From the NCBI GenBank assembly GCA_964516425.1, contig CAZFAM010000004.1:8364-72363 (forward strand): 64,000 nucleotides of DNA, in the 5' to 3' direction. The stretch is from an uncultured Bacteroidales bacterium (GTDB lineage Bacteria; Bacillota_I; Bacilli_A; ML615J-28; CAG-698). Positions 3,712-64,000 of this stretch are shown here, in pieces; within the stretch, counting starts at the first letter, position 1, and every line of letters begins with the position of its first letter. A model generated the notes under the pieces. That model saw only the letters and a program-made list of their open reading frames with translations, was not told the origin of the DNA and did not search any database. A program made the position numbers and the translations under genes.

Positions 3712-3750
3712 CCCTTACTAAAAAACCTAATTAAAAATAATTAGAATTTA

Positions 3751-3818
3751 ATCGTAGTCCTATCATTTACGGTGACAGGGTAGAGACGTTCGAACCAATT
3801 ATCGAATTTATACGACTA
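3751..3818 (-). ncRNA. Purine (guanine-sensing) riboswitch aptamer
   Basis: Minus strand AGTCGTATAA-ATTCGA-TAATTGG-TTCGAA-CGTCTCTAC-CCTGTCA-CCGTAAA-TGATAGG-AC-TACGATT matches purine riboswitch P1-P2-P3; discriminator is C (guanine type). Confidence 0.95.
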
Positions 3819-3831
3819 TTAACTTACATAC

Positions 3832-3860
3832 ATTATACATTATTTTTATTATATAAGCAA
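3832..3860 (-). promoter_or_regulatory. SigA promoter upstream of the guanine riboswitch
   Basis: TTGCTT (3860-3855), N17, TG-TATAAT (3837-3832). Confidence 0.7.
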
Positions 3861-59332: not shown

Positions 59333-60295
59333 TTAATCTCGTTTAGCACGTGGAAATTTGTCCATATATTCCTTTCTTAACTGTTCATTTGAAATATGAG
59401 TGTATATTTGCGTAGTAGATAAATTAGTATGTCCCAATAATTCTTGAACGGAAACTAAGTCGGCGCCATTATTTAATAAATGAGTAGCAAAAGTATGACG
59501 TATCATATGCGGACTAATTTTAAATGTTTGAGCAGCTTTTTCCACAATTCTATTCAAAATATCTCTTACTCCTCTTGGTGTTAATGCACCACCATGATTA
59601 TTTAAAAATAAATATTCAGATATTTCATTTTTATTTTTCACTTGTAATTCTGTTCTAGAATACATTAAATACTTTTCTAAAGCTTCAATTAATAAATTAT
59701 GAAGTGGTAAATATCTTTCTTTTCCACCTTTTCCTAATACCTTTACTTTTCTATTAATATAATCCACATCATTCATTTTTATACTACATAATTCACTAAC
59801 ACGAACACCTGTACCATACATAAATTCAAGTATTGCGTAATCTCTTTGCCCAAGTATTGTTTCTGTATTAATACTATCAAATAACATTTCTATTTCTTCT
59901 TCATATAAAAATTTAGGCAATGTTTTATCAAGCTTAGGAGATGAAACATTGGCAAACGGATTAAAGGTAATATAACATTCACGAATACAAAACTTATAAA
60001 AACTTCTTAAAGAACTAAGTTTTCTAGCTACACTTCTAGGTTTATTATAATGTTCATTTAAATGTGATGTGTAATATCTGCTAGCATTATCAAAAGGATT
60101 TAATAAATTTCCAAATTTATTAAAAGATAAAAACTCTTCAAATTCTTCAATATCTTTTTTATAATTATATACTGTATATTCAGAATACATTTTTTCATTT
60201 TGAATATACCTAATAAACTCACCTTTAGCTTCTTCAATTTTCAAATCTTTTTGTTCTTCTTTAGCTTCACTTAAGGTTTGATTTTTTTTACTCAT
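59333..60295 (-). CDS. xerC: XerC/CodV-type tyrosine recombinase
   Basis: [48 protein letters not shown]; directly after trmFO as in Bacillus gid-codV. Confidence 0.88.
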
Positions 60296-61598
60296 TTATT
60301 GCCTCACAAATTTCTTTTATTGCTTTCAAACTACGAACAGAATATAATTCTTTTCTTTCTTTTTTTCGCATTCTTTCAGTAATAATTAATTCATTAAATA
60401 AACAAAAATTAGCGTTCATTGGGATAAAGTTTGAATTAGGAGTAGCAATATAATTAGCAAGAGCTCCAATAGATGTATCACTTGTAAAATCTATCATTTC
60501 TTTTCCTTGGATTAATCTTGCCATATTAATTCCTGCTACCATTCCACTGCTTGCACTTTCTAAATACCCTTCTACTCCTGTTATTTGACCAGCAAAAAAC
60601 AAATCTCTTCTTTTTATTGTTTGGTAATATTTATTCAATACTTGCGGACTATTCATATATGTGTTTCTGTGCATTACTCCATATCTTACTATTTCGCAAT
60701 TTTCTAATCCTGGTATCATTTGAATTATTCGTTTTTGCTCTCCCCATTTTAAATGCGTTTGAAATCCAACAATATTATATAATGTTTTTTTAGCATCATC
60801 TTGGCGTAGTTGTACTACCGCATATGGTTGAACTAATGTTTCTGGATGTCTTAATCCTACTGGTTTCATTGGACCAAACAGTAAAGTTTTTTCTCCTCTA
60901 ACAGCCATATCTTCAATAGCCATACAGCCTTCAAAAACTTTCAATTCAAAATCATGGGGTATAACTTTTTCAGCATGAATTAATTCATTATAAAAATTAT
61001 CAAACTCCTCTTTAGTCATTGGGCAATTATAGTAAGATGCTTCACCTTTATCATATCGAGATTTTAAATAAGCTTTTGATTTATCAATTGATTGTTCAGT
61101 AATGATCGGGGCAACAGAATCATAAAAATATAAGTAATCATTACCACATAGTGCTTGAATATCTTTACTTAATGTTTCGCTTGTTAAAGGTCCACTAGCT
61201 ATTATAGTGTAGCCATCAGGAATTTGTGTAACTTCTTCATTGACAACTTCTACTAATGGATGATTTTTTAAATAATTAGTTATATAATCACTAAATCCCT
61301 CTCTATCGACTGCAAGAGCCCCTCCAGCTGGAGTTTCATTTTTATATGCTGCTTCCATTACTAAAGATCCTATTTGATTCATTTCTTCTTTTAATAAACC
61401 AACCGCATTTGTTAAGGCTTTTGCTCGCAATGAATTACTACAAATCAATTCCGCAAAGCCATCCGTTACATGGGCTTCTGTATTTCTTTTGCCACGCATT
61501 TCATATAGTCTTACTTTAATTCCTCTTTTAATTAATTGATAGCAAGCCTCGCTTCCCGCAAGTCCTGCACCTATTACATTTACTACTACATTTTCCAT
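60288..61598 (-). CDS. trmFO: tRNA (uracil-54) methyltransferase TrmFO (Gid)
   Basis: [50 protein letters not shown]. Confidence 0.96.
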
Positions 61599-61867
61599 AT
61601 CTATACCTCTTAAAAATATTATACAACATTTTTTAATGTTTTGAAAGAAAATAATAAAAAGTAACTAATAAATGATTAGAAGTACTTCAATTTTAATGTT
61701 AGAACTTGTATACCAATCCCCATCTTTTTAAGACATATCAATTTACTATCACGCGTTAGTTCTATGTAACTAAATGTATTGATGCACCTTTGTACTGCGT
61801 AAATAACAAAAAAATTATGGTTAATAAATGAAGAATAAAAAAATTATTATTTAAACCATTTTTATTA

Positions 61868-63243
61868 CTAATTCAGTTTAACTAACGACGCATATGGAGT
61901 ATTGATATTTAATAGATTAGAATACTTCCAACCATTTAACAAACACTGTAGAACTGTAATAACACCACTATGAGTTATTATTAATATTTTCTTTCCTCTA
62001 TATTTATTTAAAAGTTTAATAAAAGCATCTTTTATTCTATTGTAAAAATCAACCGGTGATTCTCCATTAGGATAAGCTTGGCTCATACTTAATGTATTAT
62101 AATACAGACCAGGATATCTTTTATTAAACTCTTCTTTTGTTAAATTCTTTAAATCGCCATTATTGATTTCCCTAAAGTGTGCCTCAAATACTATTTCTTT
62201 CGATAATTTAGAAGATATTATGTCTGCAGTTTCTTTAGTTCTAACTAAGTCACTAGAAATTATTAGATCATAATCTTTATCTAAAGAATAACACACATTT
62301 TCTATTTGTTTAATTCCAGTAGTAGTTAAGTGATTATCACTCCATCCACCAAGTTTATCTTGATCATCTTCGCCATGTCTTAATAAATCTATATGAATTT
62401 CACTTAAATCTATTTTATTATTAAACTCTATATGTCTCACGACGTTCAAAATAACTTCTTTGCAAACTTCATAACGAAGAGAATTTGTAAATTTATTTTT
62501 ATTTACGTAATTTGCAAATAACTCTTTAATCCGAATAGATGATAAAATACCTTCAGTTTTAATATAAATATCAGAAGTTAATTCCGTATTTCTAACATTA
62601 AATGTATTAATAATTGCACTATTAAAAATATCATTGTTATAGTTTTCTTTAGATAATAGATATATATCAAATAAATCTTTTGACCTAGAGTTTGATTCGC
62701 CCTTAGAAATTAATGTTTCAATTTTTTCAGCAAGTATTGTTTCTATAGAATAAGCTAAAATATCAAAACAAGTTTCATTAATATTTGATTTATAGTTATA
62801 CCAAATAGGATTAGGAGTAACAACATCGCCTTTAGCAACATCAACACTAAATGTTTTTTGTATACTATAATATTTGGCTTTAATTCTAACTGACTTTCCA
62901 GTATATTTCTTTTCTTTTGTTATTTCAGATATATCTAATACTATATATTCTATTTCATCTTTTAAATCCACTTTACAAATTTCATTGAACATATTTAGCA
63001 ATACTTTGTCATAAAAATTAATACCTACATATTTTAAATCAAATCTAATGTTGTCCTTTGTTCTATCCCTACAATACTGCCTAAAAGAAATCCTCCTTTG
63101 AAAACAAAGTTATTTTTATATTTTGAATTTGATAAACGATTTAAAAAATTTTCAAAAAAGAACATGTCCCATAATGTTTGATTTGCAACATTATGTACTT
63201 TAGCTAAATTATCTATGTTATTTTTTATTATTCCTAATCCCAT
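61868..63243 (-). pseudogene. abiEii: AbiEii-type nucleotidyltransferase toxin fused to a histidine phosphatase, split by a 1-nt frameshift near 63041
   Basis: N-part VFKGG..RTTLD; second frame continues DLKYVGINFYDKVLLNMF, AEKIETL, RSKDLFD; C-domain LLRHGE, SSDLVR, FREI, THSG. Confidence 0.82.
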
Positions 63244-63812
63244 AATAACACCTCAAAAATATTTTTTATATCTACATAAACATTCAATTTTTTTGCGTAT
63301 TCGTATAATTTATTAATATCTAAATATTTATTTTTATATTCTTTGATGGCATATGCTTTAACTTCTTCATCGCAAAAATCGAGCATAAATATATTACATA
63401 TACATCTTTCTTTATCATAGCAAGGCACTAAATTCCCCATTGGCGTTAATACATATTCCTTACCTAATTCATATATCATTTTATTTCTTAAAACTTTATA
63501 ATCTAGATTTTTTACATTTGAAACATTTTTTCCATATAAAAAATTCACTTGATAATGTTCAAATTGTTTAGGTGTTAATTCTTGTAAATATAATGCTGTA
63601 TTATTGGTATAAATTAAATCTTTATTTTTAAGATAATTTATATAAAAATCATCTTCTATAAAATCAGATAAAATATATACACCACTTGCAATTTTTTTTA
63701 TTAATCCCTGTTTACAAAGTCTTGTTAGATAAACAGTTGGTATATTCTTTTCTTTTAATGATTTGGCAAATATATATCCATTTATATTTAAATTTTTAAT
63801 TTTTTCAAACAT
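63234..63812 (-). CDS. abiEi: AbiEi family type IV antitoxin / transcriptional regulator
   Basis: N-terminal wHTH (LTRL...GLIKKIASGVY), TALYL, YDKERCIC; 10-nt overlap with the toxin start. Confidence 0.85.
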   Translation of the reverse strand: MFEKIKNLNINGYIFAKSLKEKNIPTVYLTRLCKQGLIKKIASGVYILSDFIEDDFYINYLKNKDLIYTNNTALYLQELTPKQFEHYQVNFLYGKNVSNVKNLDYKVLRNKMIYELGKEYVLTPMGNLVPCYDKERCICNIFMLDFCDEEVKAYAIKEYKNKYLDINKLYEYAKKLNVYVDIKNIFEVLLWD

Positions 63813-63828
63813 AAAAAACGTTCCTTTC

Positions 63829-63857
63829 TTGCTAACATTATATCATATTGTTAGTAA
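63829..63857 (-). promoter_or_regulatory. Inverted repeat flanking the extended -10 of the abiE promoter (putative autoregulatory operator)
   Basis: TTGCTAACA (63829-63837), 11 nt, TGTTAGTAA (63849-63857); minus-strand TG-A-TATAAT at 63845-63837. Confidence 0.6.
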
Positions 63858-64000
63858 AAAAACAACATATTTACTTTTTTTCAAAAATACATTTTTATTT
63901 TTTTAACTATTTTATGTCAGTCGCACTAAGATAAAGACTAATTATAATCATAATACCATTTTGATTAATTTTACCTCTACATCCAACAATAATTATAAAT

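Follow-up and report, generated by a model that had tools for sequence, protein, structure and literature searches.

Can a toxin carry the enzyme that would bring it back to activity? The question is raised by an abiE locus (positions 61868-63812, minus strand) in a 64,000-nucleotide stretch, here called the window, of contig CAZFAM010000004.1 (GenBank assembly GCA_964516425.1, positions 8,364 to 72,363 of the forward strand) from an uncultured Bacteroidales bacterium (GTDB lineage Bacteria; Bacillota_I; Bacilli_A; ML615J-28; CAG-698). The locus specifies an antitoxin, AbiEi, and a nucleotidyltransferase (NTase) toxin, AbiEii, the gene for which continues into a histidine phosphatase. We conclude that it is almost certainly a mobile two-gene AbiE cassette of the Streptococcus agalactiae type, in which the toxin bears a catalytically complete His_Phos_1 domain at its C-terminus, and that this fusion arose once. 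The copy in the window is frameshifted. Its intact relatives carry the argument, and the role of the phosphatase is weighed after them.

The fused toxin gene and its frameshift

The cassette comprises the following features:

63812..63234, minus strand: abiEi, an intact open reading frame (ORF) of 192 aa for a COG5340-type antitoxin and transcriptional regulator
63034..63243, minus strand: 5' part of the toxin gene, 69 aa, with AbiEii residues 1-67 including KGG, R63, T65 (63051-63049) and D67 (63045-63043)
63040..63043, minus strand: site of a 1-nt deletion in motif II, located by DNA comparison with the related loci L086, L087, L088, L001 and L007
62399..63040, minus strand: rest of the AbiEii NTase in the shifted frame, restored residues 69-282, matched by Pfam AbiEii and by the 9HLO_B profile comparison
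61871..62398, minus strand: His_Phos_1 domain, restored residues 283-458 (Pfam E 1.9e-37)
62380-62372 (R289-H290-G291), 62242-62240 (R335), 62170-62168 (E359) and 61972-61970 (H425), minus strand: catalytic residues of the phosphatase
61870-61868, minus strand: toxin stop codon, TAG

The toxin ATG lies at 63243, with GAGGTG just 5' of it, and the gene overlaps the end of abiEi by 10 nt (63243-63234), which confirms the overlap originally predicted. The 69-aa fragment, matching Pfam AbiEii at positions 2-37, terminates in RTTLDLI at a premature TAA (63036-63034) after the frameshift. The remainder is read in a single ORF of 377 aa (63001..61868, minus strand), in which Pfam detects AbiEii (E 1.7e-19) and then His_Phos_1 (E 1.9e-37, 129 bits against a cut-off of 21.7) across a stop-free join; the proposed in-frame passage of the toxin into a complete histidine phosphatase is therefore real. 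When one base was added in GATTTGAT, the result was a protein of 458 aa, the length given in the original prediction, with residues 1-277 forming AbiEii and residues 283-458 His_Phos_1.

The motifs named in the original prediction (KGG, RTTLDxD, EK, RxKD, RHG at 62380-62372, SSD..R, REI and THSG) are all in place. In the restored NTase they fall at KGG 49-51, R63-T-T65-L-D67-x-D69, E173-K174 and R187-x-K189-D190, and in the phosphatase at RHG 289-291, SSD..R 330-335, RE 358-359 and TH(S)G 424-427. The NTase portion that follows the lesion (residues 69-282) holds D135, D140, E173-K174 (motif III), R187-x-K189-D190-x-x-D193 (motif IV), NTF..R218 and the C-terminal helices.

At motif II the window reads GAT-TT-GAT and its relatives GAT-ATT-GAT or GAC-ATT-GAT (encoding L-D-I-D-L-K), so that D67 is parted from D69. 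From the alignment the lesion is most simply explained as a deleted A in GAT(A)TTGAT between these two residues. No long homopolymer is present at this point, which favours a true mutation over an error of sequencing, and we regard the frameshift as probably a real mutation and otherwise an assembly error. Programmed frameshifting was rejected, all relatives being in frame at the lesion site. In S. agalactiae AbiEii the substitutions D67A and D69A each abolish toxicity (PMC3985639). As encoded, the window product has its motif II split by the frameshift and, judged from its reading frames, the allele cannot make the toxin: motifs I and II are left on a 69-aa peptide. AbiEi remains intact.

The antitoxin is matched over its full length by the PADLOC model for AbiEi (E 2.5e-41), and PADLOC recognises AbiEii too. 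Against the S. agalactiae AbiEi structures 6Y8Q and 9HLO_A (195-196 aa) the match has an E-value of 1e-22 over residues 11-190; that to Pfam AbiEi_4 is weak (21.8 bits against a cut-off of 25). A toxin-family profile aligns with S. agalactiae AbiEii (9HLO_B, 287 aa) along the whole chain, with an E-value of 5e-74 over residues 1-277 and with R63, T65, D67 and D69 in register. The family thus presents what defines AbiE, namely an overlapping abiEi-abiEii bicistron, an AbiEi of the COG5340 type (N-terminal winged helix, C-terminal antitoxin domain) and a DUF1814 NTase with motifs I (hGG), II (R..DhD), III (EK/K) and IV (+DxxD), the residues at which mutation abolishes toxicity in S. agalactiae. 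The overlap layout is common to 14 fused and 70 unfused homologous loci.

The resemblance to S. agalactiae AbiE extends from the bicistronic, overlapping arrangement of a ~195-aa AbiEi and a DUF1814 toxin to the toxin itself, the N-terminal 277 residues of which align end to end and share motifs I-IV, R63, T65, D67, D69, K174, D193 (D192 in S. agalactiae) and R218 (R220 in S. agalactiae). S. agalactiae AbiEii lacks the extra C-terminal His_Phos_1 domain of ~175 aa that marks the fused family. MenT3 (8XHR, 6J7S) has the same fold as the fused toxin (Foldseek probability 1.0, target TM-score 0.74) and a phospho-acceptor equivalently placed by DxD. MenT1 and MenT3 differ from the fused toxin in that identity is ~13% and the phosphatase, if any, is a separate one of the PP2C type, with none fused.

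Conservation and origin of the fusion

Is the fusion an accident of this contig? The original prediction had been made to depend on the existence of other intact proteins joining PF08843 to PF00300. A protein search of metagenomes and metagenome-assembled genomes (MAGs) found more than 100 intact clusters with both domains, 457-479 aa in length and ranging from 81% to 37% identity, and the objection that no others exist therefore fails. NCBI names these proteins just 'histidine phosphatase family protein' or 'AbiEii/AbiGii toxin family protein'. Since different samples and assemblers independently yielded the intact fusions, some of them on contigs of 78-92 kb, chance loss of a stop codon or contig mis-assembly was ruled out as their source. 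The damage to the window copy might speak for such an artefact, as might two 'fusions' that we regard as chimeric scaffolds; against the number of intact fusions its probability is practically nil. One of the two, P0102, had seemed to offer an alternative N-terminal partner, but in its N-terminal part TAG codons are read as Gln and GC content is raised, as expected if the scaffold is chimeric with a stop-recoded phage. The other, P0104, has an unrelated N-terminus at exactly the P0102 junction and was judged a chimera by analogy, not from its DNA.

Conservation was counted in an alignment of 92 full-length relatives, each a cluster. Invariant in the NTase half are K49, R63, T65, D67, D135, D140, E173, R187, K189, D193 and R218, and in the phosphatase half R289, R335, E359 and H425. 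H290 is present in 91 of the 92, and G50, G51, D69, K174 and D190, like H290, each fail in one cluster. Mean pairwise identity is 0.52 for the phosphatase half against 0.45 for the NTase half. The ratios of nonsynonymous to synonymous substitution (dN/dS) between the frame-corrected window cassette and L086 are 0.22 for the NTase (0.24 for residues 69-282 alone), 0.15 for the phosphatase and 0.07 for AbiEi. By these ratios both halves of the toxin are under purifying selection and, since dN/dS is still low, the frameshift must be recent.

In a rough neighbour-joining tree of the NTase domain the fused toxins form one clade apart from 70 unfused AbiEii, and the topology fits a single old fusion event. 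An abiEi-type gene of 192-219 aa overlaps the toxin gene upstream in all 14 fused loci checked. The AlphaFold2 model has a pLDDT of 92 and a pTM of 0.89, and its linker is predicted with confidence, which would agree with two domains fixed in one body.

Damage to the toxin gene is not confined to the window. The closest GTDB copy (L006, 835-2213; 84% nucleotide identity) is a pseudogene, broken by one frameshift and by two nonsense codons, and in L076 (4143-6110), where an unfused AbiEii is followed by a separate His_Phos_1 gene, a stop codon falls just before the RST-DxD motif. Across the alignment, substitutions at otherwise invariant residues affect the NTase in 5 of the 92 clusters, against 1 of 92 for the phosphatase His. 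Recurrent loss of the toxin gene, as these sequences appear to record, is expected of a toxic NTase. Taken with the defence-island and prophage setting described below, such lesions are no more than indirect hints that the toxin may arrest growth and that the system may protect against phage.

The role of the phosphatase domain

In profile searches the best PDB sequence relatives of the phosphatase domain were CobC, followed by the phosphoserine phosphatase PspA and PhoE; the best fold matches found by Foldseek were GpgP, CobC and PspA. All NCBIfam scores fell below the equivalog cut-offs (CobC TIGR03162, 104 against 163 bits; SixA TIGR00249, 21 against 74.5; GpmB, 64 against 261; PspA, 53 against 350), and on this scale the domain belongs to no named equivalog subfamily. 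With CobC, PspA, PhoE and GpgP, all of His_Phos branch 1, it shares the fold, the RHG...R...E...H set and a short phosphatase-type C-terminus; it differs from them in its own GGWSD signature and in being joined to a toxin. The RNase H/acid phosphatase of the Mycobacterium tuberculosis Rv2228c type (NF005567) likewise combines a nucleic-acid enzyme with a CobC-like His_Phos_1 domain, and the phosphatase half matches with an E-value of 2e-20. However, its partner domain is another one, it is not part of a toxin-antitoxin system, and the whole-protein score is 73 bits against a cut-off of 326. The His_Phos superfamily also holds protein phosphatases, among them PGAM5, Sts-1 and SixA.

His_Phos_1 domains 30-43% identical to that of the window were also seen inserted, at times in 2-4 copies, in class I aminoacyl-tRNA synthetases of the IleRS type (P0151, P0201, P0207, P0208, P0238, P0239, P0245 and P0258). 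Domains in this identity range are likewise inserted in a PolyA_pol/HD CCA-adding enzyme (P0164) and occur in NUDIX/GrpB fusions (P0148 and P0247). The insertions in synthetases and the CCA-adding enzyme were rejected as a sister group, because the domain tree sets them at a great distance from the AbiEii-fused clade, and are kept as a loose analogy only.

What could such a domain do for an AbiEii toxin? MenT1 and MenT3 are silenced by antitoxin-induced autophosphorylation (PMC11375011), and reversal by the cellular phosphatase PstP has been discussed in the literature for MenT3. S. agalactiae AbiE was recently reclassified as a Type VII toxin-antitoxin system, in which AbiEii is silenced by AbiEi-induced autophosphorylation of T65; residues D85-E86-I87 of AbiEi, in a loop that enters the active site of the toxin, touch T65 and are required for full antitoxicity, the PP2C phosphatase SaSTP strips the phosphate from T65 and restores NTase activity in vitro, and reactivation by phosphatases in vivo is named by the authors as an open question (bioRxiv 10.64898/2026.01.19.700257). 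The original prediction had given silencing by phosphorylation next to the DxD motif as known. The literature agrees, and the phospho-site aligns one to one: T65 of the fused family, invariant in 92 of 92, is aligned with T65 of S. agalactiae and is equivalent to S78 of MenT3 and T39 of MenT1, two residues before DxD.

The AbiEi loop that corresponds to the S. agalactiae contact differs between the two kinds of system. Among 67 partners of unfused toxins, 62 have an acidic loop, of the form [ST]-[DE]-[RE]-x-P; the partners of fused toxins that were compared (the window AbiEi and 10 other distinct sequences) have [ST]-[NPLQ]-[KR]-Q-x, never acidic and without the Pro. The window AbiEi has T-P-K-Q-F (~63575-63561) aligned to S. 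agalactiae residues 84-88, so that P-K-Q stands at D85-E86-I87; in the compared partners of fused toxins the pattern at these three residues is [NPL]-[KR]-Q.

Two lineages have dispensed with the phosphatase. In P0087 (L168, 5001-6242; L169; L170) and P0091 it has decayed in frame, lacking RHG and the second His, and the NTase is intact; both keep an AbiEi 75% identical to that of the window. In P0087 the NTase has a dN/dS of 0.32, and what is left of the phosphatase one of 0.93. The pattern in these sequences suggests that the phosphatase may be a modulator that is not required for toxicity.

By analogy with S. agalactiae, the reading that we tentatively favour is that the fused phosphatase is an eraser of phospho-T65, which would make neutralisation reversible and dependent on a continued supply of AbiEi. 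The NTase would add nucleotides to tRNA 3' ends and halt translation, as its S. agalactiae counterpart does, and binding of AbiEi would induce autophosphorylation of T65 and silence the NTase. The fused phosphatase would take the phosphate off T65 again, in cis or across a dimer. Silencing would then be impermanent, with the toxin off only while AbiEi is continuously present; were AbiEi lost, through phage shut-off or loss of the element, the toxin would become active without new synthesis. The first two of these steps are carried over from a ~45%-identical homologue, and the last two are our hypothesis. We consider erasure the most economical reading because T65 is invariant and the domain packed against the toxin looks like an active phosphatase. 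It also fits the altered AbiEi loop and the decay of the phosphatase in P0087 and P0091, and the place of the phosphoserine phosphatase PspA as second-best PDB relative counts for it.

Several observations weigh against an eraser. The closest characterised relatives of the phosphatase (CobC, with alpha-ribazole-5'-phosphate as substrate, PspA, PhoE and GpgP) act on small molecules, which are partly nucleotide-like, and P0143, a near relative that stands alone, is encoded within a NUDIX-HIT-NUDIX cluster. Two other standalone proteins that have no toxin-antitoxin context, P0122 and P0133, fall in or near the fused clade. They were rejected as split systems, as the gene upstream of P0122 codes for a lipoprotein without a match to the NTase profile and the neighbours of P0133 have no AbiE-related Pfam hits. 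The altered AbiEi loop may be a mere clade signature, stemming from a single evolutionary event. A constitutive cis-phosphatase would, unless regulated, oppose the antitoxin in a futile cycle that burns NTP. In addition, P0135 (L176, 6001-7188) and P0136 (L177, 5367-6575; L178, 1729-2937) have an NTase without DxD, T65 and RxKD, an intact phosphatase catalytic set and no adjacent AbiEi gene, and the ORFs of these descendants of the fusion persist in two clusters that share less than 50% identity. Since the phosphatase is kept there without T65, it has, or can acquire, a substrate independent of T65. What stands of the original interpretation is thus a genuine, conserved fusion within an AbiE module, frameshifted in the window; a reactivation switch is not established, in view of P0135 and P0136 and of the small-molecule relatives.

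Preparation of RNA ends, the other option that had been offered, stays a live rival on the same two grounds. In its wider form, which we hold to be possible though rather doubtful, the phosphatase would work on the nucleic-acid or nucleotide side, either removing 3'- or 2'-phosphates from tRNA or RNA ends for the NTase to extend, and so widening its targets, or dephosphorylating a nucleotide-like compound by which the NTase is regulated or supplied. The best relatives do act on nucleotide-like or small phospho-esters (CobC TIGR03162 at 104 bits; the phosphatase half of the RNase H/acid phosphatase), the closest standalone homologue examined is the one in the NUDIX-HIT-NUDIX cluster, and distant members of the subfamily occur in IleRS-like synthetases, a CCA-adding enzyme and NUDIX and GrpB fusions. 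The NTase-dead, AbiEi-less descendants keep their phosphatase, their dead fold could bind RNA or a nucleotide, and P0136 is followed, 40 nt downstream, by a gene of the Exo_endo_phos family. Yet the known substrates of AbiEii and MenT toxins are tRNAs with ordinary 3'-OH CCA ends, for which no end-healing is needed, we know of no His_Phos_1 enzyme that acts on RNA 3'-phosphates, and the fusions to synthetases and the CCA-adding enzyme lie far from the AbiEii-fused clade. That the phosphatase performs an obligatory step in toxicity is further opposed by its tolerated loss where the NTase is under selection (omega of 0.32 against 0.93 in P0087).

The conservation of both catalytic centres would also suit an independent second effector, directed at a host or phage protein or a metabolite, or a sensor whose phospho-ligand triggers the toxin, giving one defence protein two arms. 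The defence-island and prophage setting fits this, as does the persistence of phosphatase-only descendants, but no candidate target or ligand is known, the relatives are generic small phosphatases, and nothing beyond abiEi is specifically linked to the toxin in the neighbourhoods examined; we judge it unlikely. The notion of an irrelevant passenger, a housekeeping enzyme fused and carried along, draws on the close standalone relatives in ordinary metabolic contexts and on decay of the domain in some lineages (P0087 and P0091). It is very improbable, because the fusion persists from 81% to 37% identity, its phosphatase catalytic set does not vary and its linker is conserved and confidently modelled; the phosphatase half also has a dN/dS (0.15) below that of the toxin half and a higher pairwise identity (0.52 against 0.45).

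Genomic setting and significance

The fusion is carried by uncultured low-GC Bacilli-like lineages from gut, rumen and wastewater and by at least one prophage. It was not found in 72,556 plasmids or 50,697 phage records at a query coverage of at least 80%. About nine GTDB species representatives, all MAGs, have a full-length match, and two of the nine (L043 and L076) have an unfused AbiEii and a separate downstream phosphatase gene. We do not take such adjoining pairs as evidence of 'split' systems: they make up 2 of ~70 loci, about as many as chance would give on a rough estimate of the frequency of His_Phos_1 genes.

The ~2.1-kb cassette is 83-84% identical in nucleotide sequence to those of L006, L086 and L087, and the flanks differ. 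Directly downstream of the cassette in the window are trmFO (60288-61598) and a xerC/codV-like tyrosine recombinase gene (59333-60295), both on the minus strand; trmFO-codV is a conserved Firmicute gene order, which the window matches. In the closest species found (L092, an uncultured gut 'Bacilli bacterium' MAG with a TrmFO 86% identical) the cassette is absent upstream of trmFO. Its neighbours in other genomes include Abi_2 and SLFN/AlbA_2 genes. In L187 (1-9291; IMG/VR UViG_3300026290_000626) it sits in a prophage between tail/holin genes and two large serine integrases, the interval from holin to integrase being the usual place of prophage-carried defence genes, and in L186 a fused cassette adjoins a serine integrase fragment.

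Two non-coding features flank the cassette:

63813..63920, minus strand: putative abiE promoter/operator region, from the sequence read by eye and a repeat search
61755..61811, minus strand: conserved ~57-nt element 3' of the cassette, from BLASTN and alignment

Reading by eye, we found in the first of these TTGTTT (63865-63860), a 17-nt spacer, an extended -10 region TGaTATAAT (63845-63837) and the ribosome binding site AAAGGA (63827-63822); an imperfect 27-nt inverted repeat and a 22-nt direct repeat lie at 63852-63909. The region is ~83% conserved at the nucleotide level with L086 and L087, up to the end of the window. A scan for consensus promoters did not call an abiE promoter and gave no enrichment, promoter and terminator scans being uninformative in the AT-rich DNA of the locus; its function as promoter/operator is one that we infer only.

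The ~57-nt element contains two AGTTACATAGnACT direct half-sites and has one copy in the window against none expected. Besides the window copy (61755-61811, minus strand) it occurs at L006 2324-2380, L086 4568-4621 and L087 4479-4535 and 626-683, accompanying the abiE cassette in several genomes whose flanking DNA is otherwise unrelated; the second L087 copy lies 5' of the neighbouring Abi_2 gene. It may mark the borders of cassettes or islands, or may be a site for a regulator or recombinase. Elsewhere in the window a purine riboswitch aptamer (3735-3835, minus strand; RF00167, 81.6 bits) is the sole Rfam match at gathering level, and the 64 kb yielded no tRNA genes.

The original prediction did not recognise this architecture from described systems, and we too found no searchable paper that joins AbiEii or DUF1814 with a histidine phosphatase, phosphoglycerate mutase or His_Phos_1; Makarova 2009 makes no mention of it. 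The AbiEii-His_Phos_1 architecture appears to be undescribed, standing in public databases under generic names only. Its significance has to be read with the caveat that the window copy is a pseudogene.

Work from 2020 to 2026 has established that DUF1814 toxins (MenT1, MenT3 and AbiEii) are switched off by antitoxin-induced autophosphorylation, and their re-activation, for which 'cellular phosphatases' have been suggested, is the stated question of the field. The fused abiE operon is a compact natural system in which the re-arming of phospho-silenced toxins becomes directly testable. Should the phosphatase act on RNA ends or nucleotides, it would be a new accessory activity for tRNA-targeting toxins, and would offer an initial clue to what the related phosphatase insertions do in tRNA synthetases and the CCA-adding enzyme. 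If instead it erases phospho-T65 within the molecule or the dimer, AbiEii-His_Phos_1 would be the first toxin known to have its own reactivation enzyme, and what is otherwise a one-way, catalytic neutralisation in Type VII systems would become a reversible switch set by the level of AbiEi; we put this forward as a possibility somewhat short of an even chance. Toxin made beforehand could then regain its activity in the minutes that follow phage shut-off or loss of the element.

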